From the IMG/VR virus record IMGVR_UViG_3300028840_006907, positions 224,001-288,000 of that record: a stretch of 64,000 nucleotides of DNA. One strand, 5' to 3'. Made by a program: the position numbers and the translations under genes. Shown here in pieces: positions 19,016 through 40,788 of this stretch (position 1 is the stretch's first letter; each line of letters starts with the position of its first letter). The notes under the pieces are model-generated. The model ran no database searches. It was not told where the DNA came from and saw only the letters and a program-made list of their open reading frames with translations. The stretch comes from a virus.

Positions 19016-21643
19016 ATGACATGTAAAATTTGTAAGAGTAATCTTTCTTATACTTTTGATAAATTTCCAGCTTATAAGTTCTGTCCTTGTTGTAACCTTT
19101 ATTTTCAAGAAGAATTTCCACCAAAGATATTTGAAGGTCCTGATGAGAATAACGGGCATGGTCCCGGTACAGGTCATTTAATGTCTGAGGATGAAAAGGA
19201 AATAAATAAAAATTTCGCTAATGTTCTCTATGATATGTTTATTCCTCGAACTCTTCTAGATATAGGTTGTAAATACCCCTATTTTATTAGTGTGTTAAAA
19301 GATAAAATAGATGTATTAGGAATTGATCCTATTTCAGAGATCTTGAAATATGGAGAAGAATTGGGTGTCTCTGTAATTCGTGATGATTTTGAAGATATGA
19401 ATATTACTCCTTTAAAAAATAAATTCGATTTAATAACTTTGATACATACTTTCGAACATTTTTATAGCCCAATAGAGACCATGAAAAAGATAATCGAATG
19501 TCTTACTCATAGAGGAGTGCTTTTAATAAGAATTCCAAACATAGATATTGAAGGTATAGAAAGAGATTTTACTGATCATCATGTTCAAATCCATCCCTTT
19601 ATATATTCAACACAAGCAATGTATCGAATCGCTCAAAAATTTGATTGTGAAATTTTTAGGGTCGATGATATTATTGGATATGGCCAGAGCGATTTTTATT
19701 TAAGGAAGAAAAGGGACCATCTTTCTTTATCGGTTTGTATGATTGTAAAAGATGAGGAAAAGAATGTTTCTGATTGTTTGGAGAGTATAAAAGATGTAGC
19801 TGATGAAATCATAGTTGTGGATACCGGATCTATAGATAATACCAAAGAAATAGTATCCAAATATACAACAAAGATATATGACTTTAAATGGATTGATGAC
19901 TTTTCTGCTGCTAGAAATCACTCTTTAAGTAAGGCAACGGGTGACTTTATTTTATGGCTTGATGCTGATGATATTGTAGAAAATCCAGAAAAGATTAATG
20001 AAATATTAAAAAATGATGATGCTAAGATATTTAATTTTAATATTAAATATGGAAATGATGTCTTTAGTCAGGCTAGACTATTTAGGAATTTTTATAATAT
20101 AAAATTTTCTGGTAGAGTTCATGAATATCCTGTAATCGATAATTTATATATAAAAGATACTGAAGTTAATGTAATTCATAAAACCGAAAAACATTCAACA
20201 GAAAACCGTTCTGATAGAAATCTCCGTCTCCTTAAAAAAGAATACGAAGATAATCCGAACAATTCCCGGACACTTTTTTACCTGGCAAGTGCTTATAAAG
20301 AACTTACTCGTTGGGATGAAGCTATAGATTTTTATCGAAAATATTTAACTATTTCTATCTGGAAAGATGAGAGATGGATGGCTCAAAAGAATATTGGATG
20401 TATTCTTTCCTGGAATAGAAAATATGAAGAAGCCATTGAAGAATTGAAGAAGGCTATTGAAATAGATGATCGATGGGCTGAGTCATATTATTATATAGCT
20501 GAGTGTTATTTCTATTTAAAAAACCCTCAAGAATGTATAAACTGGTCTTTAAAAGCTATTGAGAAAAAGATGCCCGAATCACCTCTTTGGAAAGAGATCC
20601 CAATTTATAATGACGCACCATACCGTTATCTCTTTGCTTCTTATGGTTCTTTAGGTGATTTTGAGAAAGCATTGCATTATTGTAAGATAGCATCAGAAAA
20701 AGTTCCTGAGGATGAATGGCTTAAGGAAAGAGTCACTTATTTTGAGAATGCTACAAAAGGAGTTCCTGTTGTAGTCGAATGTAATCGGTGGGGGGCTTTG
20801 GGTGATTGTTTAATGACAACTGCATCTTTACGTGCCATTAAGCATAAGATTCCGGGTTGTTTTATAAGATATGTCACCCATCCTAGTATGTTCCCGATCC
20901 TTGAAGGGAATAAGTTTATAGATGAACTTGTATCAGAATCTAAATCTGAGAACTCAGAAAAGGTTTATTTCTCATATCCTGACAGTAAATCTCCTATTAA
21001 AGATGAAGGTTATCCTAATAAGCCTTTGAATCGCCATTTAGTACGTATATTCGCAGAATGTGCTGGTTTAAAAGAATTTGATAATCTAAAGATGGAGTGT
21101 ACTCTTACAAAAGATGAGGAGAAATCAGGTCAGTCATTGAGATCTCGATTTAAGAAATATGTGACTCTTCATATCCATTCGGGTTGGTCTGAGTATAAGG
21201 ATTGGTATAATGATCGTTGGGAGACTGTTGTAGATGAGTTATTTAAAAGAGGTTACGTGGTTGTTCAGCTAGGCCATAAAGATGAGGGTCTCTTAGTTGG
21301 TACTGTGGATTATAGAGGCCATACTATAAAAGAAGCTATCTCTGCAATAAAATATGCTGATATTCATTTAGGAGTGGATTCATTTACAAACCATGCCTCG
21401 GCTACTGTGGGGACTCCTGCAGTTATTTTATTTGGGTCTACTTCTCCAACCGGTTCCGGGTATGATCAGAATATAAACCTTTATAAAGATTTGAAATGTC
21501 AGCCTTGTTATAAAGAATATGCATGGTCTAAGGATAATAAAGGAAAATGTCCTTATAATAAACTATGTATGGATCAGATCCTGGTTCAGGAAGTATTAGA
21601 CGGTTTTATGAGATTAGAAAAAAAATTATTTATTGATGGATAA
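19016..21643 (+). CDS. multidomain glycan-modifying enzyme (Zn-ribbon, SAM-methyltransferase-like, GT2, TPR, GT9/heptosyltransferase-like)
   Basis: 875 aa. CKICKS...CPCCN. Methyltransferase motif I-like LLDIGCKYPYF. GT2 motifs LSVCMIVKDEEKNV...IIVVDTGSIDNT and WLDADD. TPR-like LFYLASAYKELTRWDEAIDFYRKYL. GT9-like NRWGALGDCLMTTASLRAIKHKIPG and GVDSFTNHAS. Confidence 0.75.
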   Translation: MTCKICKSNLSYTFDKFPAYKFCPCCNLYFQEEFPPKIFEGPDENNGHGPGTGHLMSEDEKEINKNFANVLYDMFIPRTLLDIGCKYPYFISVLKDKIDVLGIDPISEILKYGEELGVSVIRDDFEDMNITPLKNKFDLITLIHTFEHFYSPIETMKKIIECLTHRGVLLIRIPNIDIEGIERDFTDHHVQIHPFIYSTQAMYRIAQKFDCEIFRVDDIIGYGQSDFYLRKKRDHLSLSVCMIVKDEEKNVSDCLESIKDVADEIIVVDTGSIDNTKEIVSKYTTKIYDFKWIDDFSAARNHSLSKATGDFILWLDADDIVENPEKINEILKNDDAKIFNFNIKYGNDVFSQARLFRNFYNIKFSGRVHEYPVIDNLYIKDTEVNVIHKTEKHSTENRSDRNLRLLKKEYEDNPNNSRTLFYLASAYKELTRWDEAIDFYRKYLTISIWKDERWMAQKNIGCILSWNRKYEEAIEELKKAIEIDDRWAESYYYIAECYFYLKNPQECINWSLKAIEKKMPESPLWKEIPIYNDAPYRYLFASYGSLGDFEKALHYCKIASEKVPEDEWLKERVTYFENATKGVPVVVECNRWGALGDCLMTTASLRAIKHKIPGCFIRYVTHPSMFPILEGNKFIDELVSESKSENSEKVYFSYPDSKSPIKDEGYPNKPLNRHLVRIFAECAGLKEFDNLKMECTLTKDEEKSGQSLRSRFKKYVTLHIHSGWSEYKDWYNDRWETVVDELFKRGYVVVQLGHKDEGLLVGTVDYRGHTIKEAISAIKYADIHLGVDSFTNHASATVGTPAVILFGSTSPTGSGYDQNINLYKDLKCQPCYKEYAWSKDNKGKCPYNKLCMDQILVQEVLDGFMRLEKKLFIDG

Positions 21644-21994: not shown

Positions 21995-22250
21995 GAATTG
22001 GGTGAAAAACTGCCAAAATAATTTCGGCCTTTTTGTAACCTCATAGATATCAATAGATTACCACAGATAAAAATTTATCCTATTATTTATATCTTATTAT
22101 CCATTTTAATAATGTTTTAATACTATCTAGCTCCAATAAAATCTTCTATTCTAATAAATGTTCTTAGTGGGACATATCCGAGGATCAGAATTTACTTTAA
22201 GTGCTACCTTAGGTAAGATGATCTAACCGGCAAAAAGCTAAGGAGTTACG

Positions 22251-25200
22251 ATGGCCAAGACAAAAAGGAAATGGATTGAGCTGGATTGGTACAATCCCAA
22301 TGCCTTACGTGCACAAGACATACCTTACGATCAAACCGAAAGTGTAAAAGATGCTATAGATAGAGCTGCCTCTGGAGTTCTCGGTCCGACGGGGACCACG
22401 GGTTCGACCGGTTCAACAGGTTCGACGGGTCCAACGGGTCCGACGGGAGCCACGGGTGCGACGGGAGCAGGAATCCAGGGTGAAACCGGAGTCGCTGGAG
22501 TTCAAGGAGCTACCGGAACCGGTGGTGGTGGAGATACTGGTGTCCAGGGTGAGACCGGTTTACCCGGAGCCACAGGAATCCAAGGTACAACCGGTATCCA
22601 GGGAACTACAGGAATCCAAGGTGAAACTGGAATCCAGGGACATACAGGTACAGTTGGAACAACGGGTGTTCAAGGAGAAACCGGTTCTCAGGGTACTACT
22701 GGAATCCAGGGAGAAACTGGAGTAAAAGGTGAAACTGGTATTCAAGGTCAAACCGGTATAGCTGGTGGAGCAGGATTTCCAGGAGCAACTGGAGTCCAGG
22801 GCGAAACCGGAGTCCAAGGAACTACTGGGGTTCAAGGGGAAACCGGGGTTCAAGGAACCACAGGAGTAGCCGGAGCAACCGGAGTCCAGGGAACTACTGG
22901 CGTCCAGGGAACTACTGGCATCCAAGGTGAAACGGGTGTCCAGGGAGATACTGGAGTTGGTGCCACTGGAATCCAAGGAACCACAGGTATCCAGGGTCAA
23001 ACCGGTGTTCAAGGTATCACCGGAGCTTATGGTGGTCCTCCTGGAGAAACTGGTGTCAAGGGAGAAACCGGAGTACAGGGGGCTACTGGAATCCAAGGTC
23101 TTCAAGGATTGCAGGGAACCAAAGGTGAGACCGGAACACAAGGTATTCAAGGCCAGACCGGAGTTCAGGGAGAAACTGGAGTTCAAGGGCAGACTGGTAC
23201 AGGTGCTCCAGGAGCCACTGGAGTTCAAGGGCAGACTGGTATCCAGGGAACCACTGGAATAGGTTTAGGTTCAACAGGAGTAGCGGGAGCAACTGGAATT
23301 CAAGGTACTACCGGAGTTCAAGGTAGGACTGGAGTCCAAGGATTTACCGGAGCTGCTGGTTTAGGTGAAACTGGTATCCAAGGAGCTACCGGAGTCCAGG
23401 GTGCCACAGGTATTCAAGGGACTACTGGTGCAGGAATCCAAGGAGCCACAGGTATTAGTGGTGACACGGGAGTTCAAGGAGCCACAGGAATTAGAGGTAC
23501 TACTGGTGCAGGAATCCAAGGAGCCACGGGGGTTCAGGGCATTCAAGGTCAAACTGGAGCCCAGGGCGAAACCGGAGTCCAGGGTGAAACCGGAATAGAA
23601 GGTTCTCAATTTGCAGGATTTAATTATAAAGCAAAAACAGACAATCAATCTGATACAGATCCTGGTATAGGAAATTTAAAGTGGAGTGCTGTAGCTCAAG
23701 TCACATCTAGTGAGCTTTATGTGGATGATGCTGACGTTAATTCTACGGATCTCAGTAATTTTTACCTCACTTTAAAAGCTGCCGACTCTTTACGTATTGT
23801 TCGTATGGAAGATCCTTCTCAGTATCAGATTTTTAATATAACAAACGTTACTGATAGAACCGGATGGTTCCGTTTATCTGTTACACCTGTTGTTTCAGGT
23901 GGTTCGACTTTTAGTTTAAATGATAATATCATACTGATATTTAGTATATCAGGTCCTAGAGGTCAGACCGGAGTAAAAGGTGAGACTGGAATTCAAGGAA
24001 CTACAGGTGTTGCCGGAGCCACAGGAGTCCAAGGTCAAACTGGAATTCAGGGTCAAACTGGAATCCAGGGCATACAGGGCCAGACTGGAATTCAAGGACA
24101 AACTGGTATTCAAGGTCAAACAGGAATCCAAGGTCAGACAGGTGTTGGCGCTCAGGGTGCTACTGGTGTAGCTGGTCAAACCGGGGTCCAGGGAGAAACT
24201 GGGATACAAGGTCAGACTGGTGCAGGAATCCAGGGAACTACTGGTGTTCAAGGCGTTCAAGGATTAACAGGTGTGCAAGGCCAGACAGGTGCCGGAATCC
24301 AAGGTGAAACCGGAGTCCAGGGTACTCAAGGTTTAACCGGTATACAGGGTCAGACAGGTGCTGGAATCCAAGGAGAGACTGGTGTTCAGGGAAACACTGG
24401 GGCTTTTGGTGGTCCTCCCGGAGAAACTGGTGTTCAGGGAGAAACTGGTGCACAAGGTTTAACTGGAGTCCAAGGTCAAACCGGAGCAGGTATTCAGGGA
24501 GCCACTGGTATTCAAGGAGTTACTGGAGTTCAAGGCCAAACCGGTGCTGGTATTCAAGGAGTCACTGGAATCCAAGGACAAACTGGTATACAGGGTCAGA
24601 CAGGAGTAGCAGGTCAGACCGGAGTCCAAGGAATACAAGGCCAGACAGGAGTAGCAGGTCAGACCGGAGTTCAAGGAATTCAAGGACAAACCGGAATAGC
24701 AGGTCAGACCGGAGTTCAGGGTATACAAGGTCAAACTGGAATTCAAGGGCAGACTGGTGCTGGAATCCAAGGTACAACTGGAGTAGCCGGAGCTACAGGA
24801 GTTCAGGGAATTCAAGGTCAAACAGGAGCTGGAATCCAAGGTACAACTGGAGTCCAGGGAACTACAGGAGTTCAAGGTGAAACTGGTACTGGTATTCAGG
24901 GAGAAACTGGTACGCAAGGTATTCAGGGTCAAACCGGAATTCAGGGACAGACTGGGATTCAAGGTAATACTGGTGTAAAAGGTGAAACCGGAGTTCAGGG
25001 TTTTCCAGGTCCTCAGGGTACGAAAGGTGATACTGGTGCTCAAGGTATTCAAGGTGAGACAGGAACTCAAGGAATTCAGGGCCAAACTGGAGTAGCTGGA
25101 GAAACTGGAGTTCAGGGTCAAACGGGTACTCAAGGAATTCAGGGTCAGACTGGTGTAGCTGGTGCAACTGGTGCGGGAATTCAAGGTCAAACTGGTGTTC

Positions 25201-28200
25201 AAGGAATCCAAGGTCAGACTGGAATCCAGGGGCAAACTGGAGTCCAGGGTGAAACAGGTATAGAAGGATCTTTATGGGCTGGATTTAGTTATAATGCCAA
25301 GACTGATGATCAGTCAGATACAGATCCTGGTACAGGGAATCTTAAATGGAGTACTGTTGCTCAGGTAAATGCGGGTGAACTTTATGTAGATGATACTGAT
25401 CAATATTCCATAGATTTAAGTAATTTTTATCTTACGTTAAAGGCTGGTGATTCTCTTCGAATAATTCGTCAGGAAGACCCTTCTCAATATCAAATTTATA
25501 ATATAACAAATGTTACAGATAGAACAGGTTGGTTCCGTCTTAGTGTGACCTATGTTACTTCAGGTGGATCTACTTTCAGTCTTAATGATAATATTATTCT
25601 TGTTTTTGTTAAAGCTGGAATTCAAGGTCAGACAGGTGCCCAAGGTATTCAAGGTCAAACAGGAGTCCAAGGAATTCAAGGACAGACTGGAGTTCAAGGA
25701 GCCACAGGTACCCAAGGAATTCAGGGGCCACAAGGCCAGATAGGTCTTCAAGGTACTACTGGGGTCCAAGGTGAAACCGGAGTCCAGGGCACACAAGGTC
25801 AGACGGGTATCCAGGGTACAACAGGTGCCGGGATTCAGGGTCAAACCGGAGTCCAGGGAATTCAGGGTCAAACCGGTATTCAAGGTCAAACAGGAGCAGG
25901 TATTCAGGGAGCTACTGGTATTGCTGGTATAGATGGTCAGACTGGAATCCAGGGTGAAACCGGAATTCAGGGCCAAACTGGAGCTGGTATTCAGGGAGCT
26001 ACTGGTATTGCTGGTATAGATGGTCAGACTGGAATCCAGGGTGAAACCGGAATTCAGGGCCAAACTGGAGCTGGAATCCAAGGTGAAACCGGTATCCAAG
26101 GAATTCAAGGATTAACAGGTATTCAAGGTACAACTGGTGCTGGCATTCAGGGAGAAACTGGAGTACAGGGTACACAAGGTCAAACAGGTGTTCAAGGTCA
26201 AACAGGTGCCGGAATTCAGGGTGAAACCGGAGTCCAGGGCACACAAGGTCAAACCGGTATTCAGGGTCAAACTGGCGCTGGTATCCAAGGTGTGACAGGA
26301 ATTCAAGGAATACAAGGACAAACTGGTATCCAGGGTCAAACGGGTGCCGGAATCCAAGGAGAAACCGGAGTCCAGGGAGAAACAGGAATACAAGGTCAGA
26401 CTGGTGCAGGAATCCAGGGAACTACTGGTGTTCAAGGCGTCCAAGGATTAACAGGTGTCCAGGGTCAAACTGGTGCTGGTATTCAAGGTGAAACCGGAGT
26501 CCAGGGTACTCAAGGTTTAACTGGTATACAGGGTCAGACAGGTGCTGGCATTCAGGGAGAAACCGGGGTCCAGGGAGAAACTGGAATACAAGGTCAGACT
26601 GGTGCAGGGATTCAGGGTGTGACAGGAATTCAAGGTCAAACTGGAGTTCAGGGAACTACAGGAATCCAGGGTCAAACAGGTGTTGGGATCCAGGGTGTGA
26701 CTGGAGTTCAAGGAATTCAAGGTCAAACCGGTATTCAAGGTCAAACCGGTATTCAAGGTGAAACCGGAGTGTCTGGAGCTACAGGTATTCAGGGAATTCA
26801 AGGTCAAACCGGAATCCAGGGTCAGACCGGAGTCCAAGGAGAAACAGGTGTACAAGGTTCTACAGGTGTATTAGGTGATCCTAATTGGATAGATTTTGTA
26901 CCTCAAGCATCTGCTCCTAGTCATCAGGAAGCTCGCCTTTTTTATGATTCAACAGACCATTCATTGAGTTATTACAATGAAGAATCTGATGTTACCCTGA
27001 ATTTAGGTCGTGAATTATATATCAGAGTGTATAATGCAACAGTTTCAACAATAACTAACGGTCAAGTAGTTTATGTCACAGGTGTTGCTGCAGGATACCC
27101 CACAATAGATTTAGCAGATGGTAGTGATTTAACTAAGACTAATAATATAGGAGTGGCTACTCATAATATAGAAGCCTCAACATTTGGTTATATCACATTA
27201 TTTGGATTAGTAAGAGATATTAATACTAATGCTTTCAGTGCTGGTGATGAAGTTTGGTTAAGTGAAAGTACTCCAGGTGGTTACCAGTCTTTTGCAGGTA
27301 CATATGCCGTTAAAATAGGTTATGTTGTTGTTTCAGATACATTAAATGGTTCAATAATGGTAGCTATGGGTGATACGGAAGCTACTATAGCTGGATTGAA
27401 TGATGTAAATCTTACTAGTATCTCTGATGGTCAGTATTTACAATGGGACTCGGATTCTACTAAATGGGTTAATGTTTCTGAAAGTCCTCAAGGTGATACA
27501 GGTATCCAAGGAGCAACTGGAGTTCAAGGAATTCAAGGAACTACAGGAGTTCAAGGAGCAACTGGAGTTCAAGGTATTCAAGGAACCACAGGAATTCAAG
27601 GACAGACCGGAGTTCAGGGTGAAACCGGAATTCAAGGAACTACAGGAGTCCAGGGAGAAACTGGTACTGCAGGAATAGACGGTCAGACAGGAGTTCAGGG
27701 TGAAACCGGTATTGCAGGAATAGATGGTCAGACAGGAGTTCAAGGTACTACCGGAGTTCAGGGAATTCAAGGAACTACAGGAATTCAGGGAGAAACCGGT
27801 ACTGCAGGAATAGACGGTCAGACAGGAGTTCAAGGTGAAACTGGAACTGCAGGAATAGACGGTCAGACAGGAGTTCAAGGTACTACCGGAGTTCAAGGAA
27901 CCACTGGAATTCAAGGTACTACCGGAATTCAGGGAACTACTGGAATTCAGGGAGAAACCGGTACTGCAGGAATAGACGGTCAGACAGGAGTCCAAGGTAC
28001 TACTGGGATTCAGGGGGAAACCGGAGTCCAAGGTACCACAGGGATTCAGGGAGAAACCGGAGTCCAAGGTACTACTGGAATTCAGGGAGAAACTGGTGTT
28101 TTTGGGATTGTCAATTATATCGATTATGAACCTCAAGATACAGTTCCTTCTCATTTAGAAGGTCGTACCTTTTATGACAGTACAGATCATTCTTTAAGTT

Positions 28201-31200
28201 ATTATTTAGATTCAACCGATGTGACTCTTAATATAGGGCAAGAATTTCTTATTCGAGTTGAGAATAAATCGGGTGGAGCAATAGTAGATGGTCAAGCAGT
28301 CTACGTCACTGGTTCTAATGAAGATGTCCCTGAAGTAAATCTAGCAAAAGCAGATTCTTCAAATACTTCTGAGGTTTTAGGTATTGCTACTCAGGTAATT
28401 GAAAATGATACGCAAGGTTATGTTACTTGTGCTGGAAAAATACGTAACTTAAATACTAGTGATTGGACTTCAGGAGATTTACTTTATTTATCTGATAAAA
28501 CTGCTGGTGCATTGACCAATGTTCAACCTTCAGGTAATAGTAATATATTTAGTGTTCATATAGGTCTTGTTATAAGATCACATGCTAGCGATGGTGTTAT
28601 TTTTGCTCACCGTCATATTCCTCATTACCGTCCAGAACAGTTAAGAGATACCACTGCATCTTCTTTAACTGATGGTCAGGTTTTATCTTATGAAAGTAGT
28701 ACAGATAGATGGATAAATAGCACTTTACCTTCAATTACACAATCTATAGATAGAAATGAACCTGGTGGTTTTGTCAACAGAACAGACAGTACAGTAGGTT
28801 TTACTGAATCTACTCGTACTTTGCAAGTTACAACCGCGAGTTCTTATGATATCTATCAGGCTGGTACTAAATATACAATTAATGCAACCGATTCTACTCA
28901 AATTCCTGATACAAATGGTTTGCACTATATTTATTTCGATACCACTAATATGACTGTACAAACGAATCCAGCACTTCAGAATATTCTAGATATCATATAT
29001 GAAAAATCTCTTATTGCTGCGATATATTGGAACTCTTCCGATGATAGAGCTATTATAACCAATGATGAACGTCATGGTATTGTGATGGATGGTAGGACCC
29101 ATTCTTATCTTCATACTACTAGAGGAACTCAATATACATCACCAGGCTTAACTCCTGGAGATTTTGATATTGATGGAGCTGGAAGTAATGACAGTGCCAG
29201 TCAAATGAGTATTTCTGATGGGCAAATACAAGATGAAGATATTTGGTTTGAAATTCAAGATGGTAATCCTCAAATATTAGATCCTATAGCTGAAATTCCT
29301 GTTATTTATAAAGATGGTGCAGGAGCTGAATGGAAAATAAAATATTGGACAGCTTCATGGGCATCTGCAACCTCTTATCCTACTGGTACTATAATAAGAG
29401 AGAGTAATTCTTATTTTAGATCTAGTGGAGGAACTTCAGGTGGTGCTCTTCCTGCTTTTTCTGCAAATCGTGAACCAGGTGATACTATTGTTGATAATAC
29501 AATTACGTGGACAAATGTTGGTTCTCCATTGTCTCCTGTGATTAATTTTGTGGGAGGTAATTATAGATTAGCATATAATCAGTTTACTGGTGGGGCATGG
29601 CAACAAACCGAAGTAACAAATGGTAATTATGTTCTTACTCATATATTTGCTACGACTGATATTTTTCATCCTATTATGGCTATTCAAGGTGAGAATGAGT
29701 ATGGTAATGTTGCTGCAGCTAGAGCAGGAGCTTTAACAGAACTAGATAGTATTGTATTGTCTGGATTGGATTTTCCTGAATCAATATTTCTTGCTACAGT
29801 TATTTTTCAGACTAATAATACTTATACTAATCAAGTAAAAGCTCGAACTATCTCAACTGATACAGGTGATGATTTTATAGATTGGAGATTTTCTCAAATC
29901 AATGCAGCCTCAACAGGTGATCAAGGTCCTCAAGGAGAAACTGGTGTTCAAGGGGTACAGGGTGAAACCGGAGTACAGGGTGAAACCGGAGTAGCAGGAG
30001 CAACTGGTGTTCAAGGAATACAAGGCCAGACTGGAATCCAGGGAGAAACTGGAATTCAAGGAGCCACAGGTGTTGCCGGAGCAACTGGTGTTCAAGGGAT
30101 CCAAGGTCAGACTGGAATCCAAGGAGAAACTGGAATTCAAGGAACTACGGGAGTAGCAGGAGCAACTGGTGTCCAAGGAATCCAAGGAGAAACCGGAATT
30201 CAAGGAGAAACCGGAATTCAAGGAGCAACTGGTGTTCAAGGTATTCAAGGAACAACCGGAGTTCAAGGAATTCAGGGAACCACAGGAGTTCAGGGTGAAA
30301 CCGGAGTCCAAGGAATTCAAGGAACCACAGGAATTCAAGGAATTCAAGGAACCACAGGAGTTCAGGGTGAAACCGGAGTCCAAGGAATTCAAGGAACCAC
30401 AGGAATTCAGGGTGAAACCGGAATTCAAGGAATTCAAGGAACCACAGGAGTTCAGGGAACCACAGGAGTTCAAGGAATACAAGGAACCACAGGAGTTCAG
30501 GGTGAAACCGGAGTCCAAGGAATTCAAGGAACCACAGGAGTTCAGGGAGAAACTGGAGTTCAGGGGATCCAGGGTCAGACTGGAATTCAGGGAGAAACTG
30601 GAGTAGCCGGAGCAACTGGAGTACAGGGCCAAACAGGAGTTCAAGGAATCCAAGGTCAAACTGGTATACAGGGAGAAACCGGAGTAGCCGGAGCAACCGG
30701 AGTACAGGGTCAAACAGGAGTTCAAGGAATCCAAGGACAAACTGGTGTTCAAGGAGCAACCGGAGTAGCCGGAGCTACTGGAGTTCAGGGAGAAACAGGA
30801 ATTCAAGGAATCCAAGGACAAACTGGTATACAGGGAGAAACCGGGGTAGCCGGAGCAACCGGAGTACAGGGCCAAACAGGAGTTCAAGGAATTCAAGGAA
30901 ATACTGGTGTTCAAGGAGCAACCGGAGTTCAAGGAACTCAAGGAGATACTGGAGTTCAAGGAACAACTGGTGTTCAAGGTGAAACCGGTTTAGAAGCAGC
31001 TTATCATTTCTTTGCGGATCAGTTGGATAGTCCTAATAATGCTGATTGGGCTGTTAATGCTCTTGCTCCAGCTTCTGCTGATACTACAAATAATGCTCTT
31101 GTTGTACGTCGGTTTGATGATACGGATGAAGAAGGTGTAGGATTTATGGTAAATATTCCAACAGGAAGGACAAATATAGTATTTGGATTTAAGAGTAGGG

Positions 31201-31487
31201 CTGAAACAGCTCCTGGATCGGCGCATAATGTAAAACCAAAGGTATATGTCAGGGAAATACCTGATAATACTACTGTGGAAAGTTGGTCTTCTGGTTATGA
31301 TTTAAATGCTTTAAGTATGCCAACAAATACCTATTTTCAATATGATTCTCAATCTGTAGCTTTTACCGCTCTTGATATTACAGGTGGGAGATTGGCTCAA
31401 TTTGAAGTAACAAGAGATCATACGGGTGTAACTCCTGATTTAACTGGTGACTGGGACTTGCTAGAGCTTAATGTTTCATTTACCTAG
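22251..31487 (+). CDS. giant modular collagen-like virion fibre/fibril protein
   Basis: AAGGAG RBS; 3,078 aa. Five G-X-Y tracts (about nt 22383-23600, 23950-25260, 25616-26870, 27486-28100, 29916-30990). They are separated by two copies of a ~118-aa module (FAGFNYKAKTD...DRTGWFRLSVT), two copies of a second module (DPNWIDFVPQASAPSHQEARLFYDSTDHSLSYY / IVNYIDYEPQDTVPSHLEGRTFYDSTDHSLSYY), one ~400-aa unique globular region and a ~165-aa C-terminal domain. Confidence 0.9.
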   Translation: MAKTKRKWIELDWYNPNALRAQDIPYDQTESVKDAIDRAASGVLGPTGTTGSTGSTGSTGPTGPTGATGATGAGIQGETGVAGVQGATGTGGGGDTGVQGETGLPGATGIQGTTGIQGTTGIQGETGIQGHTGTVGTTGVQGETGSQGTTGIQGETGVKGETGIQGQTGIAGGAGFPGATGVQGETGVQGTTGVQGETGVQGTTGVAGATGVQGTTGVQGTTGIQGETGVQGDTGVGATGIQGTTGIQGQTGVQGITGAYGGPPGETGVKGETGVQGATGIQGLQGLQGTKGETGTQGIQGQTGVQGETGVQGQTGTGAPGATGVQGQTGIQGTTGIGLGSTGVAGATGIQGTTGVQGRTGVQGFTGAAGLGETGIQGATGVQGATGIQGTTGAGIQGATGISGDTGVQGATGIRGTTGAGIQGATGVQGIQGQTGAQGETGVQGETGIEGSQFAGFNYKAKTDNQSDTDPGIGNLKWSAVAQVTSSELYVDDADVNSTDLSNFYLTLKAADSLRIVRMEDPSQYQIFNITNVTDRTGWFRLSVTPVVSGGSTFSLNDNIILIFSISGPRGQTGVKGETGIQGTTGVAGATGVQGQTGIQGQTGIQGIQGQTGIQGQTGIQGQTGIQGQTGVGAQGATGVAGQTGVQGETGIQGQTGAGIQGTTGVQGVQGLTGVQGQTGAGIQGETGVQGTQGLTGIQGQTGAGIQGETGVQGNTGAFGGPPGETGVQGETGAQGLTGVQGQTGAGIQGATGIQGVTGVQGQTGAGIQGVTGIQGQTGIQGQTGVAGQTGVQGIQGQTGVAGQTGVQGIQGQTGIAGQTGVQGIQGQTGIQGQTGAGIQGTTGVAGATGVQGIQGQTGAGIQGTTGVQGTTGVQGETGTGIQGETGTQGIQGQTGIQGQTGIQGNTGVKGETGVQGFPGPQGTKGDTGAQGIQGETGTQGIQGQTGVAGETGVQGQTGTQGIQGQTGVAGATGAGIQGQTGVQGIQGQTGIQGQTGVQGETGIEGSLWAGFSYNAKTDDQSDTDPGTGNLKWSTVAQVNAGELYVDDTDQYSIDLSNFYLTLKAGDSLRIIRQEDPSQYQIYNITNVTDRTGWFRLSVTYVTSGGSTFSLNDNIILVFVKAGIQGQTGAQGIQGQTGVQGIQGQTGVQGATGTQGIQGPQGQIGLQGTTGVQGETGVQGTQGQTGIQGTTGAGIQGQTGVQGIQGQTGIQGQTGAGIQGATGIAGIDGQTGIQGETGIQGQTGAGIQGATGIAGIDGQTGIQGETGIQGQTGAGIQGETGIQGIQGLTGIQGTTGAGIQGETGVQGTQGQTGVQGQTGAGIQGETGVQGTQGQTGIQGQTGAGIQGVTGIQGIQGQTGIQGQTGAGIQGETGVQGETGIQGQTGAGIQGTTGVQGVQGLTGVQGQTGAGIQGETGVQGTQGLTGIQGQTGAGIQGETGVQGETGIQGQTGAGIQGVTGIQGQTGVQGTTGIQGQTGVGIQGVTGVQGIQGQTGIQGQTGIQGETGVSGATGIQGIQGQTGIQGQTGVQGETGVQGSTGVLGDPNWIDFVPQASAPSHQEARLFYDSTDHSLSYYNEESDVTLNLGRELYIRVYNATVSTITNGQVVYVTGVAAGYPTIDLADGSDLTKTNNIGVATHNIEASTFGYITLFGLVRDINTNAFSAGDEVWLSESTPGGYQSFAGTYAVKIGYVVVSDTLNGSIMVAMGDTEATIAGLNDVNLTSISDGQYLQWDSDSTKWVNVSESPQGDTGIQGATGVQGIQGTTGVQGATGVQGIQGTTGIQGQTGVQGETGIQGTTGVQGETGTAGIDGQTGVQGETGIAGIDGQTGVQGTTGVQGIQGTTGIQGETGTAGIDGQTGVQGETGTAGIDGQTGVQGTTGVQGTTGIQGTTGIQGTTGIQGETGTAGIDGQTGVQGTTGIQGETGVQGTTGIQGETGVQGTTGIQGETGVFGIVNYIDYEPQDTVPSHLEGRTFYDSTDHSLSYYLDSTDVTLNIGQEFLIRVENKSGGAIVDGQAVYVTGSNEDVPEVNLAKADSSNTSEVLGIATQVIENDTQGYVTCAGKIRNLNTSDWTSGDLLYLSDKTAGALTNVQPSGNSNIFSVHIGLVIRSHASDGVIFAHRHIPHYRPEQLRDTTASSLTDGQVLSYESSTDRWINSTLPSITQSIDRNEPGGFVNRTDSTVGFTESTRTLQVTTASSYDIYQAGTKYTINATDSTQIPDTNGLHYIYFDTTNMTVQTNPALQNILDIIYEKSLIAAIYWNSSDDRAIITNDERHGIVMDGRTHSYLHTTRGTQYTSPGLTPGDFDIDGAGSNDSASQMSISDGQIQDEDIWFEIQDGNPQILDPIAEIPVIYKDGAGAEWKIKYWTASWASATSYPTGTIIRESNSYFRSSGGTSGGALPAFSANREPGDTIVDNTITWTNVGSPLSPVINFVGGNYRLAYNQFTGGAWQQTEVTNGNYVLTHIFATTDIFHPIMAIQGENEYGNVAAARAGALTELDSIVLSGLDFPESIFLATVIFQTNNTYTNQVKARTISTDTGDDFIDWRFSQINAASTGDQGPQGETGVQGVQGETGVQGETGVAGATGVQGIQGQTGIQGETGIQGATGVAGATGVQGIQGQTGIQGETGIQGTTGVAGATGVQGIQGETGIQGETGIQGATGVQGIQGTTGVQGIQGTTGVQGETGVQGIQGTTGIQGIQGTTGVQGETGVQGIQGTTGIQGETGIQGIQGTTGVQGTTGVQGIQGTTGVQGETGVQGIQGTTGVQGETGVQGIQGQTGIQGETGVAGATGVQGQTGVQGIQGQTGIQGETGVAGATGVQGQTGVQGIQGQTGVQGATGVAGATGVQGETGIQGIQGQTGIQGETGVAGATGVQGQTGVQGIQGNTGVQGATGVQGTQGDTGVQGTTGVQGETGLEAAYHFFADQLDSPNNADWAVNALAPASADTTNNALVVRRFDDTDEEGVGFMVNIPTGRTNIVFGFKSRAETAPGSAHNVKPKVYVREIPDNTTVESWSSGYDLNALSMPTNTYFQYDSQSVAFTALDITGGRLAQFEVTRDHTGVTPDLTGDWDLLELNVSFT
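25899..26072 (+). repeat. exact 87-bp tandem duplication inside the collagen-like gene
   Basis: 25899-25985 and 25986-26072 are identical base for base (ggtattcagggagctactggtattgctggtatagatggtcag...ggccaaactggagct). Each copy encodes GIQGATGIAGIDGQTGIQGETGIQGQTGA. Confidence 0.9.
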
Positions 31488-31498: not shown

Positions 31499-32656
31499 AT
31501 GCCCGAATGGGGAATAGATACCGCAGGTACTACAACAACGACGCCGAATTGGTGTCGTGCTATGGGTGGAACCTCTCCCAATATAGACAATATGCTTTTA
31601 AAAAGTGTGTCTATATATGTAGGTTCTACTCATACTCAACAAATCCGATTAGCAGTTTATTCTGGTGGTAATTTAACGACAGGTCCTGATGGTGCAACTC
31701 TCGTTTATGATGCTGGGGTGACTTCTGGCACGGCTTTAAACACATGGTTAACTATAAATATTCCTACTGAAGTAATTCTTCCTAAAAATGCTGTGACATG
31801 GGTAGCATTTAGAAATAATGGTGGTTATATAATCCATTATTATGGTACCAGTCCAGCCGGAAATGATTTTCAAACTGCTCGTGGTAGATATAGCTCTACT
31901 GTTCTTGATGGAGATGAAACTTCAGCTTTTCCTTCTACATGGCCTTCTGATGGTGGAGCTTTTGCTGCTTTTTGGTATTCTACATATATTATTTATCAAA
32001 TAAGATATTATGGAGGATTATTTTTCGAATCATCGAGTAGTATGTATTTATCTTCCGTATCATCATTTACTCCTCCTGCAAATTGTTCTGTCTCTTTTTG
32101 GCTCTTTCATAGTAATGATGGTGGCACTCCTAGAATAGTTAGCCATAGTGATAATTGGGAAATATGGATAAATGCAAGTAATCAAATATCTAATGATATG
32201 AATTGGGGTACTTCTTTGGTATCTAGTGCTACTATTAATACTAATACACGATATTATATAGTATGTACAAGAGCTTCTGACAATACTTTACAAATATATG
32301 TAAATGGCCAATTTGATAATTCTAGTAGTGGTGGAACAGGTTCACCAGGATCGGCCACGTTTTATGTAGGTGTTAAACAAACATTATTACAATATTTTGA
32401 TGGTTATATAGAAGATTTAAGAATTTATAATAGAGTCCTTTCAGCAAATGAAATAGCCACTATTTATGGCTGTAAAGGAACAGATTCCATTACTTATGGC
32501 TTAATTCATAAATGGCCTATGCAAGAAAAGGCAATAGATGTGGTTGCTAGTGGAACCGGGTCTATAATAGATTTAGGTCCAAGTAGACTAGATTTGACTC
32601 CTAATAATAATCCTACTTATTCTGGAACACAATTGAAATTTAAAAGGTTTGGATAA
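31499..32656 (+). CDS. virion-associated protein with shared LamG-like (concanavalin-type) C-terminal domain, paralogue 1
   Basis: 385 aa with AAGGAG RBS. C-terminus: FTPPANCSVSFWL...WEIWI...YYIVCT...IYVNG...FDGYIEDLRIYNRVLSANEIATIYGCKGTDSITYGLIHKWPMQE. This stretch aligns with the last ~200 aa of the next three paralogues. Confidence 0.7.
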   Translation: MPEWGIDTAGTTTTTPNWCRAMGGTSPNIDNMLLKSVSIYVGSTHTQQIRLAVYSGGNLTTGPDGATLVYDAGVTSGTALNTWLTINIPTEVILPKNAVTWVAFRNNGGYIIHYYGTSPAGNDFQTARGRYSSTVLDGDETSAFPSTWPSDGGAFAAFWYSTYIIYQIRYYGGLFFESSSSMYLSSVSSFTPPANCSVSFWLFHSNDGGTPRIVSHSDNWEIWINASNQISNDMNWGTSLVSSATINTNTRYYIVCTRASDNTLQIYVNGQFDNSSSGGTGSPGSATFYVGVKQTLLQYFDGYIEDLRIYNRVLSANEIATIYGCKGTDSITYGLIHKWPMQEKAIDVVASGTGSIIDLGPSRLDLTPNNNPTYSGTQLKFKRFG

Positions 32657-34878
32657 TGGGTAAACAAATTTTTAGTTCAGAGGGTTCCGATACTTTCACT
32701 GTACCAAAAGGAGTGACTTCCATTACTGTCAAGGCATGGGGTGCAGGAGCTGGTGGTGGAGGGGGTGGAACGGCTAGTGTTGGTGGAGCCGGAGGTGGTG
32801 GAGGTTATGTTCAGGGTGATATATCTGTAACACCTGAAGAAACCCTTAATATTCATGTAGGTGGAAATGGAGGTTTAGGAACTTTTACAGGTACCGCAGC
32901 TTCTGGTGGTGGGGGAGGAGGTAAATCTTCAGTTTACAGAAGTACAACTCCTTTATTTGTAGCTGGCTCTGGAGGAGGCGGAGGTGGTGGTGATAATTCA
33001 TCAGGGACTCCGGCGGGAGCCGGAGGTGCTGGTGGAGGAAGTACTGGTGGGTCTGGTGGTTCTTCCGGAGGAGCTAGTGGCGGTAGTGGTGGCACTCAGT
33101 CAATTGGTGGAACACAGGGTTCTGGAGGTCAAAATGCAGGAGTTTTTGGAAAAGCTCGTGCAGAAACCACTTTAAATAATGCCTTAAATTTTGATGGTGA
33201 TCCTGAATATGTTACAATAGGAACAGATTCTGTTTTTAATTTTACTAATTCTTTTACCCTTGAATGTTGGATTAAACCCGATAATGTAACAGGATCTAAA
33301 AGGGTAATAAGTTCAAGATCATCTGATACCAATAATGGAGTTGGATTTGGTATTAACGGTAACAATCCTGCTTTTACAACATATGGTAAACAAGATTTTA
33401 CTTCTACTGGAACCGTTTCAGCAGGAGTTTGGGCTCATATAGCAGTAGTCTTTACTTCAGGTAATAATGCAAGATTTTATATAAATGGAGAGTTTATAAA
33501 TCAGGTAGACGGTACCCAAGCAGCTACAACTTCTGGTATATATATGGTTCTTGGTATGCTTGGTTTTTATGATGATGAACAATATTGGGTAGGTGAACTT
33601 GATGAAATAAGAATGTGGAATGATGAGCGTACTGATAAAGAGATATCTGATTATTATGCTCAAACTCTTACAGGTAGTGAAGCAAACTTAGTCGCTTACT
33701 ATAAATGTAATGAATCATCAGGTACAAATCTTCCCGACGAAACCACAAATAGTAATGATGGCACACTCCAAAATATGGAAGATGCTGATTGGGTTACATC
33801 AAGTTGGTCTCCATTGACAGACGCTGCTGATGCTGGGGCTGGTGGTGACGGTGGAATGGGTACTGGCACTGGGGGTGGTGGCTCTGGTGGCACAACATAT
33901 GGCGGTGATGGTGGAATTGGTGATAGTGGTGGCACCCCTGGATTTTCTGGCGGTGGCGGAGGCGGTGCAGGCTATGGTGGAGGTGGCGGGGGATCATGTT
34001 CGGTTTCTGGCGGAGACGCTGGTGGTGGTGGGGGCGCTGGCTCTAGCTATATTATAGGTACCGCTACGTCAACTACCAATACGCAAGCATCAGGCCAGAA
34101 TCCACCTAATACGGGCGACCCAGACTATACTGGTTCTGTAGGAGTTGGAGGAAATGGGGGTAGTACAAGTACAAATGGGAATAATGGTAATGATGGTTTA
34201 ATAGTTATCAGTTGGGTTGACCCTCCAGCATATATAGGTATGAAATTTGAATCAGATAGTTCACAATTTTTGTCTTCTGTAGCAAATTTTACCGCTCCTT
34301 CTAGTACAACTGTTACATTTTGGTTATCTTCTACTAATCTCACAGGATTAAAAAGAATTATTGGTTGGTCCGATTTTTGGGAAATAAAGACGATTGATAA
34401 TGATATATCTAATGATTTAAATGGAGAGTTAACCACTTATTCTACAACTCCATTAGATCTTAATACTCTTTATCATGTTGCTTGTACATATAATTCCTCT
34501 GATGATGCTGCGAAAGTATATATAGATGGGTCTCTTGATGGTACGGGTTCAAATACTGAAACTCCTTCTGGAACAACACTACAAATAGGTTTTAGACCTG
34601 GTGCACCTGACGGTTATTTTGACGGTTATTTAGGTGATATAAGAATTTATGATAGGGTTTTATCTGATTTTGAAATAGCCACAATTCATGCATGTCGAGG
34701 AACTGATGGAATAGTCCATGGTTTACGTAATAGGTATTTATTAAATGAAAGAGCAATGAATGTTGCTGCTGATGGGACAGGTTCGGTTAAAGATATGGCT
34801 CAGGATCAATTAAACATGACTCCAAATAATAGTCCTGTTTATGAAGGAACAACATTAAAATATAGAAGGATGGGTTGA
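32656..34878 (+). CDS. glycine-rich (polyglycine-type) + LamG + shared LamG-like C-terminal domain protein, paralogue 2
   Basis: 740 aa. N-terminal FTVPKGVTSITVKAWGAGAGGGGGG...GGGGYVQGDISVTPEETLNIHVGGNGG matches the Gly_rich family pattern. Central LamG motifs FTLECWIKPD, WAHIAVVF, FYINGEF, GELDEIRMWN. A second Gly-rich block, then C-terminal FDGYLGDIRIYDRVLSDFEIATIHACRGTDG. Confidence 0.75.
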   Translation: MGKQIFSSEGSDTFTVPKGVTSITVKAWGAGAGGGGGGTASVGGAGGGGGYVQGDISVTPEETLNIHVGGNGGLGTFTGTAASGGGGGGKSSVYRSTTPLFVAGSGGGGGGGDNSSGTPAGAGGAGGGSTGGSGGSSGGASGGSGGTQSIGGTQGSGGQNAGVFGKARAETTLNNALNFDGDPEYVTIGTDSVFNFTNSFTLECWIKPDNVTGSKRVISSRSSDTNNGVGFGINGNNPAFTTYGKQDFTSTGTVSAGVWAHIAVVFTSGNNARFYINGEFINQVDGTQAATTSGIYMVLGMLGFYDDEQYWVGELDEIRMWNDERTDKEISDYYAQTLTGSEANLVAYYKCNESSGTNLPDETTNSNDGTLQNMEDADWVTSSWSPLTDAADAGAGGDGGMGTGTGGGGSGGTTYGGDGGIGDSGGTPGFSGGGGGGAGYGGGGGGSCSVSGGDAGGGGGAGSSYIIGTATSTTNTQASGQNPPNTGDPDYTGSVGVGGNGGSTSTNGNNGNDGLIVISWVDPPAYIGMKFESDSSQFLSSVANFTAPSSTTVTFWLSSTNLTGLKRIIGWSDFWEIKTIDNDISNDLNGELTTYSTTPLDLNTLYHVACTYNSSDDAAKVYIDGSLDGTGSNTETPSGTTLQIGFRPGAPDGYFDGYLGDIRIYDRVLSDFEIATIHACRGTDGIVHGLRNRYLLNERAMNVAADGTGSVKDMAQDQLNMTPNNSPVYEGTTLKYRRMG

Positions 34879-34881
34879 TAA

Positions 34882-37173: not shown

Positions 37174-37220
37174 TTATAAAATTTACATATAAGATCTATA
37201 TAACATATAAGGAGGTTCAA

Positions 37221-37736
37221 ATGTATAAAACAGCATTAGTATGTGGAGTCTGGGACAAATTGCATGAAGGGCATAAAAATATAATTAAATATTCTATAGA
37301 AAATTCTGAATTACTGAAAATTTTTGTATTAGAAATTAATATACATGATAGACATGAAGAGCCTTTTATACCTTATGAAGAAAGAAAAAAAACAGTCGAA
37401 AATTATGTCCTTTCTTTAGGGGCAAGAGATAAGGTACAAATAATAGGAAAAAAAGATGCTACGGAAGTTATGGTATTGGATGAATTGAGAACTGTAGATT
37501 GCGCCTTTGCTTGTGCTAAAGATAAAAATCAGCAAATTTTAGAAATGATAAAAATAACTCAAGATAGAGTTGCTAAATTAGAAGGCCCTGATGGACGTAA
37601 GCCATTTGTTATGGAATGGGTAGATCCTGTGAAAAATGATGAAGGAAAAATAATCTCTTCAAGTAAATACAGGAAAAAAAGCCGTTTAGAAAAAGAAAAG
37701 AGAGTAAATTCTTCAGGTGGATATGGTCGATTTTAA
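37221..37736 (+). CDS. cytidylyltransferase-family nucleotidyltransferase
   Basis: 171 aa with AAGGAGG RBS. N-terminal ALVCGVWDKLHEGHKNIIKYS carries the (H/T)xGH signature of the cytidylyltransferase / PPAT / TagD fold. Confidence 0.6.
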   Translation: MYKTALVCGVWDKLHEGHKNIIKYSIENSELLKIFVLEINIHDRHEEPFIPYEERKKTVENYVLSLGARDKVQIIGKKDATEVMVLDELRTVDCAFACAKDKNQQILEMIKITQDRVAKLEGPDGRKPFVMEWVDPVKNDEGKIISSSKYRKKSRLEKEKRVNSSGGYGRF

Positions 37737-38959
37737 TGGCACAATATAAAGTTCGTACATCTAATGCTAACCAAGGCCAGTATATGAAAAATGCTGGCTC
37801 TCGAACTACTACTGGTCCATTACAATTTGGGAGATCTGGTAAAGGAACAGCAAATGATGTTCGAATAGCTTTAAGATGGCAACCAAATATAGATATGACT
37901 GGTAAATATATGATAGTTACTTCTGCCTATATTCGTGTTACAAGAGAGACTGAAGATACTGGCGCATTTACAGCTACAGTTAGAGTGCATAATGGTTCTG
38001 CTCCTGATTTATCTACAACTGATTTAGCTTGGGGTTATTCTGATATAGGTTATTCTCAATCATGGTCGATAGCAGATTCATGGAGTGCTGATACTGAATT
38101 TACTTCACCTGATATGAAAAGCGCAGTACAAGCTTGGTTTAATAGGAGTGCTCATTCAAGTACGGATTGGATTGGTTTCATTATTGATGATGGTGATTCT
38201 GCTGATGATGAATATAAAGGAGTCTATGATGCTGATCATTCTACTTCAAGTTATCGTCCTGAATTAGAAATAAATTATAAAATATATTCAGGAGGAGATA
38301 ATGGTGGATTATCTTTTACAGCATCGAGTTCTCAGTATTTGGAATCAGTTAGTAATATTACACCTCCTGCAACATCTTCAGTATCTTTTTGGATTTATTT
38401 AACTGAATTGAATCAATTTGGTCGAACTATTAGTCGATTTGCTTATGAAATTGGTCTATCAGATAATGCCGGATCTCCTCCTAATGGGATAGTTAATGCT
38501 ATGACTAGTGGAACTATACTTGTATCAAGTTCTCTTACAGTGAATACCCTTTATCATTGTGTTTGTACGGCCTCATCTACTGCTCGACAGATATATCTTA
38601 ATGGAGTATTGAATACTTCAGGAGGTGGTGGTACGGTATCAACAGCAGGGACTATGTGGATCGGGTCACAAGATGGTGTTGATTTTTTCCTATCTGGTCA
38701 TTTAGAAGATATACGAATTTATAATCGTATCCTTACATTAGCTGAAGTTCAAACTATTTATGCTTGCCAAGGCTCAGATAGTATTACTTATGGATTAATT
38801 CATAGATGGCTTATGAATGAGGGTCCGATAAGTTCGGTAGCAAGTGGTACTGGACTAGTAAAAGATTATGGGATAAATCAAGTAAATATGACTCCATTTA
38901 ATAGTCCAGTTTTTTTAGGAACTCAAATGAAAAATAGGAATAAGTATAGGACCCATTAG
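37736..38959 (+). CDS. virion-associated protein with shared LamG-like C-terminal domain, paralogue 4
   Basis: 407 aa; start overlaps the upstream stop (TAATG). Distinct N-terminal beta-rich domain ending SSYRPELEINYKI. C-terminus LSGHLEDIRIYNRILTLAEVQTIYACQGSDSITYGLIHRWLMNE. Confidence 0.7.
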   Translation: MAQYKVRTSNANQGQYMKNAGSRTTTGPLQFGRSGKGTANDVRIALRWQPNIDMTGKYMIVTSAYIRVTRETEDTGAFTATVRVHNGSAPDLSTTDLAWGYSDIGYSQSWSIADSWSADTEFTSPDMKSAVQAWFNRSAHSSTDWIGFIIDDGDSADDEYKGVYDADHSTSSYRPELEINYKIYSGGDNGGLSFTASSSQYLESVSNITPPATSSVSFWIYLTELNQFGRTISRFAYEIGLSDNAGSPPNGIVNAMTSGTILVSSSLTVNTLYHCVCTASSTARQIYLNGVLNTSGGGGTVSTAGTMWIGSQDGVDFFLSGHLEDIRIYNRILTLAEVQTIYACQGSDSITYGLIHRWLMNEGPISSVASGTGLVKDYGINQVNMTPFNSPVFLGTQMKNRNKYRTH

Positions 38960-40779: not shown

Positions 40780-40788
40780 GAGGATTTT

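Follow-up and report, generated by a model that had tools for sequence, protein, structure and literature searches.

Architecture of the collagen-like gene

The stretch of viral DNA analyzed here (the window; 64,000 nucleotides (nt), positions 224,001 to 288,000 of the IMG/VR record IMGVR_UViG_3300028840_006907) belongs to the genome of a huge tailed phage of roughly 470 kb, and contains, at 22251..31487 on its plus strand, an open reading frame (ORF) for a collagen-like protein of 3,078 amino acids. The protein alternates five collagen-type tracts with modules of the phage fiber repertoire and ends in a predicted β-sandwich of the kind seen in carbohydrate-binding modules (CBMs). Among the modular collagen-like phage fibers, a kind already known, it is a new member and an extreme one; collagen tracts are long established in phage fibers. 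The ORF begins with ATG, as given in the ORF list of the window that was used in an earlier reading of the letters alone (hereafter the sequence-only reading), and an AT-rich intergenic gap of 310 nt lies upstream of it; the computed mass of the whole protein is 305 kDa, with an isoelectric point of 4.1. An automatic parse into Gly-X-Y runs versus other sequence divided the protein into eleven segments, which are listed below together with the ribosome-binding site and a separately marked domain.

22240..22245, plus strand: Shine-Dalgarno sequence AAGGAG, read directly from the sequence, 5 nt ahead of the ATG at 22251
22251..22373, plus strand: residues 1-41, N-terminus, 41 residues, non-collagen, starting MAKTKRKWIELDWYN; candidate attachment peptide
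22374..23609, plus strand: residues 42-453, Col1, 412 residues, 131 triplets, 9 interruptions, about 118 nm as a triple helix
23610..23951, plus strand: residues 454-567, module A1, 114 residues
23952..25274, plus strand: residues 568-1008, Col2, 441 residues, 140 triplets, 11 interruptions (8 of them G-A-G), about 126 nm
25275..25616, plus strand: residues 1009-1122, module A2, 114 residues
25617..26882, plus strand: residues 1123-1544, Col3, 422 residues, 132 triplets, 13 interruptions (12 of them G-A-G), about 121 nm
26883..27491, plus strand: residues 1545-1747, module B1, 203 residues, with a C-terminal 'DGQxLxW...W.N' motif
27492..28112, plus strand: residues 1748-1954, Col4, 207 residues, 69 uninterrupted triplets, about 59 nm
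28113..29915, plus strand: residues 1955-2555, module B2 and a globular domain of about 390 residues
28752..29915, plus strand: the ~390-residue globular domain itself, with a predicted local distance difference test (pLDDT) score above 90 in the predicted model
29916..30995, plus strand: residues 2556-2915, Col5, 360 residues, 120 uninterrupted triplets, about 103 nm
30996..31484 (31487 including the ORF end), plus strand: residues 2916-3078, C-terminal domain (CTD), 163 residues

The sequence-only reading had described a modular collagen-like protein of this size and position, and its description is borne out, the re-parsed boundaries lying about 10 nt or less from its own. Its estimate of about 1,800 residues of Gly-X-Y agrees with the 1,779 residues counted in runs of at least three triplets, and the five tracts that it saw as dominated by the motif G[VI]QG[QET]TG were all recovered, the motif occurring 162 times. 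It had also named two near-identical copies of one module and two diverged copies of another. The former pair exists, with 91 of 114 residues (80%) and 256 of 342 nt (75%) identical between A1 and A2, although the module measures 114 rather than about 118 residues; the latter pair, B1 and B2, has 80 of 202 residues (40%) in common. The module-copy and repeat signals are not attributable to chance.

More than 12 other ORFs, of 80-355 residues, overlap the collagen gene at 22456-30977, out of frame with it or antisense to it. Since they coincide with the Gly-X-Y tracts, they are best read as artefacts of a stop-poor, periodic and G-rich Gly-X-Y coding sequence, and not as genes.

Composition and interruptions of the collagen tracts

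Together, the five tracts comprise 1,842 residues in 592 triplets, and the Pfam Collagen profile (PF01391) matched with E = 6.3e-225 and a score of 727.7 bits, the cutoff being 27.2. The long uninterrupted Gly-X-Y runs, scoring above threshold, by which this family is recognized are present, the uninterrupted runs being of 69 and 120 triplets. Ile or Val occupies X in 49% of the triplets, and Y is taken by Gln in 45% and by Thr in 44% (262 triplets); there are 16 prolines among the 1,842 tract residues, and six KGE or KGD triplets. Col1 to Col3 contain 33 interruptions (9, 11 and 13, respectively), 23 of which are G-A-G, i.e., a one-residue break of the 'G1G' type. These breaks recur about every seven triplets, with a period of 23 residues or 69 nt in Col3, and Col4 and Col5 have zero interruptions. 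At the textbook rise of 0.286 nm per residue in a collagen triple helix, the predicted rod lengths are 118, 126, 121, 59 and 103 nm, with a sum of 527 nm. A tblastn search of phage genomes with a pure collagen tract returned no matches, owing to low-complexity masking, an exact-sequence cluster look-up found no entry, and literature searches on the assembly accession and on collagen in huge phages gave nothing relevant. Prokaryotic collagen-like chains go up to about 2,000 triplets (PMC11923368).

A second giant fiber-like gene of the window, at 3040-10053 on the plus strand, directly follows the terminase gene and encodes 2,337 residues: BNR/Ycf48-like β-propeller repeats, a collagen tract at residues 1011-1382 (about 360 residues in Gly-X-Y runs, also of the G[VI]QGxTG style), and then about four repeats of a module of about 130 residues. 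The product is matched by many 'tail fiber' PHROGs; a C-terminal Peptidase_S74, an intramolecular chaperone domain typical of tail fibers and spikes, was suspected by eye and received no confirmation from Pfam. At the DNA level, the collagen tract of this second gene is 75-80% identical to parts of the 3,078-residue gene, and the unusual interruption G(A/N)(F/Y)GGPPGETG is common to both proteins; this DNA identity and the common interruption suggest exchange between the two giant genes.

The inserted modules

Searches with module A in a word-indexed homologue database gave no matches, and its relatives came from an exhaustive search of representative proteins, which retrieved 1,891 at E ≤ 1e-3 and 276 at E ≤ 1e-10, most of them 500-3,200 residues long and bearing the module as 2-8 tandem copies. 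One of them (P0176) has a module that is 64% identical, with the same GAGIQGETG collagen after it, in two (P0194 and P0216) the module is flanked on both sides by collagen of different sequence types, and three copies are found in the annotated tail fiber of the Pelagibacter podophage HTVC010P. Twenty of 24 members matched only one unannotated PHROG, and the module A profile retrieved only noise from the PDB sequences. The Pfam BppA CBM was tried as an identity for the module and was not significant (E = 0.097, in 1 of the 24 members), and hhalign found no relationship between the module A and CTD profiles.

Module B is predicted to be a β-tulip (cement/decoration-like) knob. For PF09956, the phage cement or β-tulip decoration family, a profile match above threshold and a fold match were both obtained, and B1 was assigned to the knob through its homology to the β-tulip-like copy B2. 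It is to be noted that the fold is not a small stand-alone protein as in that family, but is internal, at about residues 2000-2120 of 3,078, between collagen tracts.

The globular region of about 400 residues that the sequence-only reading had called unique proved, on the contrary, to be a domain widespread in phage fiber-like proteins. The 601-residue segment consisting of B2 and this ~390-residue domain was matched by 83 database proteins, most of them over the domain. Two copies of the domain are present in P0001, while P0002, P0004 and P0023 have module B and the domain together; the last additionally has a collagen tract, and its gene comes after the portal gene and four unannotated ORFs on a 38-kb phage contig. 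Matches to module B and the domain include the annotated tail fibers of Pseudomonas phage Rollin, Roseobacter phage CRP-6, Nitrincola phage 1M3-16 and others, and structural matches to the domain in BFVD were with proteins, about 1,000 residues long, of uncultured Caudovirales, some of them bearing Peptidase_S74. Among solved structures it has no convincing relative, and PDB sequence searches with the 601-residue segment and its profile gave no meaningful match. At the level of annotation, therefore, all three families (module A, module B and the ~390-residue domain) share homology with annotated tail fibers or S74 proteins. The inserts, which the sequence-only reading had described as globular, are real modules that fold independently.

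The C-terminal domain and its family

By structure prediction, the CTD folds like the CBM6/35/36 carbohydrate-binding modules, a β-sandwich that is galactose-binding-domain-like. The structural matches, at 5-16% identity, include tail hub and depolymerase proteins; in sequence, the CTD has no hit in Pfam and none that is meaningful in the PDB, and the model describes a domain that is CBM-like in fold and not a member of a CBM family. The sequence-only reading had proposed a C1q/TNF-like or lectin fold, of which the lectin type is upheld by the predicted β-sandwich and the C1q/TNF type is not; a jelly-roll head of the C1q/TNF/BclA type was rejected in the structural comparison.

An IMG/VR profile scan with the CTD identified 67 loci, in 65 of which a CTD-bearing ORF could be called. 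The CTD ends the ORF in all 65 (175-1,825 residues in size), and the 3,078-residue protein is by a wide margin the largest of the sampled CTD proteins. Six of these ORFs have at least 100 residues of Gly-X-Y (L058, L077, L049, L054, L075 and L065), four have module A (L028, L018, L017 and L047), three have module B (L039, L035 and L015), and the ~390-residue domain occurs in L058 and L042. At 1,164 residues, L058 shows a reduced form of the layout, with the ~390-residue domain, collagen, a knob, collagen and the CTD in this order, while the small P0120 (252 residues) consists of a short N-terminus, about 55 residues of collagen and the head. The four proteins L058, L049 (611 residues), L054 and L077 resemble the present one in their CTD, which is 41-49% identical, and in having collagen tracts; L058 further shares the ~390-residue domain, a knob, two collagen tracts and a Laminin_G_3 gene directly downstream. 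In contrast to the G[VI]Q-GxT style seen here, however, the collagen of these four is rich in GPT and GST, and it amounts to at most 516 residues of Gly-X-Y in one or two rods, versus 1,779 residues and five rods.

The association with Laminin_G_3 is general, a homologue being present in 57 of the 67 CTD loci and starting no more than 10 nt from the stop codon of the CTD gene in 25 of 46 loci examined; no description of this gene pair was found in the literature searched. The domain appears to be phage-restricted, as judged from a search of 185,579 species genomes that gave six CTD matches, each on a short contig (2.8-44 kb) of a metagenome-assembled genome. The median identity is 50% for the CTD versus 30% for the neighboring Laminin_G_3 domain. 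By their neighboring genes, the closest relatives of the window are L054 and L058, which share full-length homologues of its proteins p576 and p310. The identity of the CTD does not track this relatedness, being 47-49% in L054 and L058 and 56-58% in more distant loci, and this discordance suggests either horizontal exchange of the CTD module among huge phages or strong constraint on it.

Integrity of the gene

In a gene as repetitive as this one, repeat tracts might have been expanded or chimerically joined during assembly from short reads, so that the true gene or genes would be shorter, and one public assembly does have the gene split into calls of 581 and 2,404 residues. The window belongs to NCBI assembly GCA_016840655.1 (contig JAEORW010000001.1, 469,617 bp), and the same region is present in JGI assembly 3300017963, on a 388-kb contig (locus L008), in which the gene is also 9,237 nt long. 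Over 21,158 aligned bases the two assemblies have one difference only, a C to T change at window position 23994 that turns CAA into TAA at codon 582 (Gln, in Col2), and it is because of this TAA that the JGI gene calls are split. This TAA may represent genuine variation in the population, with a truncated fiber as its product, or else an error in sequencing. The two assemblies possibly come from related samples, and hence are not fully independent. Internal repeat families of the gene are just 60-80% identical at the DNA level (one member, 90%), and the longest exact repeat is 89 nt, which is below typical read lengths, such that short reads can place the repeats. In addition, the frame is open throughout the 9.2 kb, all module boundaries are in frame, and the start codon is preceded by a good ribosome-binding site. 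An assembly artefact is thus extremely unlikely, and the assembly expansion that the sequence-only reading had allowed for as a possible outcome of long-read sequencing does not hold, given a second assembly of the same length and the shortness of the exact repeats.

Genomic neighborhood

The genes flanking the collagen gene, and the head genes of the same window, are as follows.

1144-3036: terminase
19016..21643, plus strand: methyltransferase-GT2-TPR-GT9 protein, 875 residues, directly upstream of the collagen gene; candidate protein glycosyltransferase
31499..38959, plus strand: four Laminin_G_3 proteins (385, 740, 763 and 407 residues) and a cytidylyltransferase, directly downstream of the collagen gene
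43131-46484, plus strand: portal ORF, 1,117 residues
49421-50989: prohead protease
52565-53437: HK97-type major head protein

The nearest relatives of the portal protein are those of a 485-kb uncultured phage, the 309-kb myovirus Tunturi 5 and the 497-kb Bacillus phage G; fibers are not mentioned in the Tunturi 5 paper. The Laminin_G_3 neighbors match PHROGs annotated as 'virion structural protein', 'tail fiber assembly' and 'tail fiber protein'. Among the four paralogues, the C-terminal ~210 residues are strongly conserved, with many invariant columns, and the N-terminal parts differ; those of 740 and 763 residues have an N-terminal poly-Gly-rich domain of about 165 residues (Pfam Gly_rich_2; PHROG 'tail fiber assembly') and a second Laminin_G_3 domain. 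A single Laminin_G_3 gene, for about 230 residues, is the usual state at related loci, i.e., the array is expanded in the window. Past this array, at 39049-42208 on the plus strand, are encoded the proteins of 576 and 310 residues, for which only sub-threshold Spherulin4-like matches were obtained; partial homologues of the 576-residue protein lie downstream of the CTD gene in 44 of the 67 related loci.

A second large protein with GT2, TPR and methyltransferase regions is encoded at 61866-63947 (plus strand), and the cytidylyltransferase gene lies at 37221-37736 (plus strand). The combination of TPR and glycosyltransferase regions suggests enzymes that act on protein substrates. In the related-phage loci L013 and L010, glycosyltransferase and methyltransferase genes are found beside the CTD gene. 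Only five of the 67 CTD loci (L058, L049, L054, L074 and L055) have, at a distance of up to 10 kb, a gene homologous to that for the upstream glycosyltransferase, and in three or four of the five the CTD protein bears collagen (Fisher p = 0.004 to 0.0002, over the 65 loci with a called ORF). This co-occurrence is phylogenetically confounded and is a lead only, since L054 and L058 are also the closest relatives of the window and shared ancestry can explain it. A single-protein scan for loci related to the upstream glycosyltransferase found none.

Proposed structure and role

We consider the 3,078-residue protein to be probably a structural adhesion fiber of the huge tailed phage, most likely tail-associated and homotrimeric. 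From the architecture we infer that three chains wind into five triple-helical rods of the lengths given above, about 0.53 µm in total. The rods would be connected by in-line globular knobs, namely module A twice, the β-tulip module B twice and the ~390-residue domain once, and the fiber would be capped by a trimer of CBM-like heads. The first to the last rod would each have a globular module at the C-terminal end (A1, A2, B1, B2 and CTD, respectively). Collagen triple helices zip up from a C-terminal nucleus (PMC11923368), and because of this C-to-N direction, one knob per rod could nucleate it; the knobs may thus register and nucleate their own rods, the 592 triplets folding as five independent units. 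Owing to the G-A-G breaks, the first three rods from the N-terminus would be semi-flexible, and the last two, which are unbroken, would be stiff. Such a fiber would serve as a long-range capture line that widens the capture radius of the virion, the CTD heads binding host surface glycans weakly, reversibly and multivalently, and module A and the ~390-residue domain perhaps binding glycans too. Among these candidate glycan-binding parts, a motif RxFDDTxEEGVGF is conserved.

If this prediction holds, the fibers, at about 0.53 µm, would be several times longer than the phage's own capsid and tail; the long tail fiber of T4 measures about 0.145 µm. They would also provide a natural example of long, nearly proline-free triple helices built as five rods, each with a C-terminal registration knob. 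A very long segmented fiber had been predicted in the sequence-only reading, and it is the natural reading of the five-tract, multi-knob architecture. The accompanying remark that a beads-on-a-string protein of this size is unusual for a phage remains correct for the size, which is exceptional, but not for the design, which recurs in the metagenomic and viral proteins P0194, P0216 and L058 and in Tal of Streptococcus thermophilus phages (PMC7533335). The current understanding of phage adhesins is not overturned by these results; rather, their modular repertoire is extended to an extreme of size. Moreover, an apparently phage-restricted, conserved CBM-like CTD with a Laminin_G_3 partner gene is now defined across many huge-phage contigs, as is a widespread ~390-residue fiber domain without a solved structure.

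Several observations weigh against a tail-type adhesion fiber. The 41-residue N-terminus resembles no known attachment domain, having no significant match in Pfam, among 46 related proteins or among 50,697 phage records. The composition of the tracts (Ile/Val at X, 16 prolines, six KGE/KGD) is not obviously one that would stabilize a triple helix, and the JGI copy of the gene has the nonsense polymorphism at 23994. The gene sits among the terminase, portal and capsid genes, and nowhere in the window was a gene recognized as one for a tail sheath, tube or baseplate. Capsid decoration proteins are the closest structural relatives of module B, and the 'tail fiber' labels on the homologues of the modules are annotations, not experiments. 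Finally, a conserved C-terminus with variable N-terminal parts is the opposite of the classical tail-fiber pattern, in which the receptor-binding tips are normally variable.

Some of these features would suit a capsid (head) fiber or decoration fibril, i.e., a hair-like coat on the capsid for adhesion or shielding, with the β-tulip module or the CTD as its anchor, which we regard as rather unlikely. The gene lies in one block with those for the terminase, portal, protease and major head protein; the conserved C-terminus and variable N-terminus, a pattern also shown by the Laminin_G_3 paralogues, fit a C-terminal anchor as in Hoc of T4; module B has the cement fold; and there are precedents in the collagen-like capsid spike gp12 of SPP1 (PMC7602432) and the head fiber gp8.5 of phi29. 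Nonetheless, the β-tulip modules are placed mid-chain between collagen rods and not terminally, modules A and B and the ~390-residue domain are found in annotated tail fibers or S74-bearing proteins, and the predicted CBM-like CTD matches tail hub and depolymerase proteins. Two further readings involve the neighboring sugar-modifying genes. A non-virion phage protein sent to the host surface or the matrix around it, where it might alter aggregation, block superinfection or form a BclA-like glycoprotein layer, and which the neighboring enzymes would modify, is very unlikely: the TPR-GT2/methyltransferase proteins and the cytidylyltransferase do flank the gene, PHROG places the glycosyltransferase under 'moron / host takeover', and Thr at Y in 262 triplets resembles the Thr-glycosylated collagens of BclA type (PMC7157674, PMC11923368), but the N-terminus is charged rather than hydrophobic, with no obvious signal peptide by eye, every recognizable module is from phage fiber repertoires, the neighbors match virion structural PHROGs, and the CTD is essentially confined to viral contigs, with the six matches in species genomes noted above.

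Thr abundance in bacterial and viral collagens has been rationalized by glycosylation (PMC11923368), and the remaining reading, to which we give little credence, is a glycosylated collagen 'hair' of more than 0.5 µm, in which the ~260 Y-position Thr residues would be O-glycosylated by the upstream enzyme and the chain would be anchored by its CTD, possibly via a Laminin_G_3 protein, with the N-terminus outward. By analogy, such a structure may be the phage counterpart of the Bacillus exosporium hair and the mimivirus fibrils, with a polarity reversed relative to the classical tail fiber, and if it were true, the glycan-clad coat would be a long-range adhesin and a shield at once. A possible connection between TPR-glycosyltransferases and Thr-rich collagen in phages is testable.

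Comparison with known systems

The closest architectural precedent of the proposed tail-type fiber is Tal (tail-associated lysin) of S. thermophilus siphophages, which has up to 2,020 residues, collagen tracts of 100-500 residues with one or two inserted CBMs, and a C-terminal domain, and which shares the rod-knob-rod-head plan (PMC7533335). Tal, however, has a gp27-like N-terminal baseplate domain of about 400 residues, whereas the present protein has 41 non-collagen residues and no such Pfam or PHROG match; its inserts are of other families (module A, β-tulip, ~390-residue domain), and it has five tracts with 1,842 residues. The EPclA-D proteins of Escherichia coli O157:H7 prophages are likewise phage fiber proteins with Pfam Collagen tracts, combined with trimerizing fiber domains, and their triple helices have been shown experimentally (PMC3368898). 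They contain PfN (PF08400), Pf2 (PF03406), PfC (PF06820) and PCoil, none of which turned up here, even when the globular segments were searched separately at E ≤ 1; the longest of their Col domains has 322 residues and one interruption, as opposed to five tracts of 207-441 residues in the present protein. Since the defining N-terminal domains of both are absent from its sequence, the 3,078-residue protein is a member of neither the Tal nor the EPcl group, though it is built on the same plan.

Outside phages, the plan recalls collectins and C1q, in which a trimeric collagen stalk bears three heads of lectin type that bind glycans multivalently and with low affinity. Small members of the CTD family, such as P0120, share this exact layout of N-terminus, collagen and head, but their heads are related neither in sequence nor in fold to those of C-type lectins or C1q, and we know of no bouquet-type higher-order assembly among CTD-family proteins. 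BclA and BclA3 are exosporium glycoproteins of Bacillus and Clostridioides. BclA consists of an N-terminal anchor, a Gly-X-Thr collagen stalk and a C-terminal β-sandwich head that is TNF/C1q-like. In stalks of the BclA3 type, Thr residues are O-glycosylated by a dedicated glycosyltransferase whose gene lies close by (PMC7157674). A Thr-rich stalk, a predicted β-sandwich head and an adjacent upstream glycosyltransferase are also seen here, glycosylation being putative; the differences are that BclA is bacterial and has one stalk with a TNF/C1q-like head, while the phage protein has five stalks and a CBM6/35/36-like head. As for the β-tulip decoration proteins, these are small and stand-alone and bind to capsid 3-fold sites, whereas in the present protein the predicted fold occurs twice, mid-chain, in 3,078 residues.

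Other features of the window

Homologues of the portal protein align to it in two pieces, around an insert that matches Intein_splicing, LAGLIDADG_3 and Hom_end; the Pfam matches span residues ~200-650, and the homologues break at ~390-680. The portal gene thus contains an intein that includes a homing endonuclease. Two HNH/endonuclease VII-like regions are encoded at 60608-61783 (plus strand) and one HNH region at 15906-17462 (minus strand); these ORFs and the portal intein indicate that several homing-type endonucleases are present in the window. A single tRNA-Leu gene (anticodon TAG) is located at 17956-18032 on the plus strand, between a minus-strand replication block and the fiber cluster.

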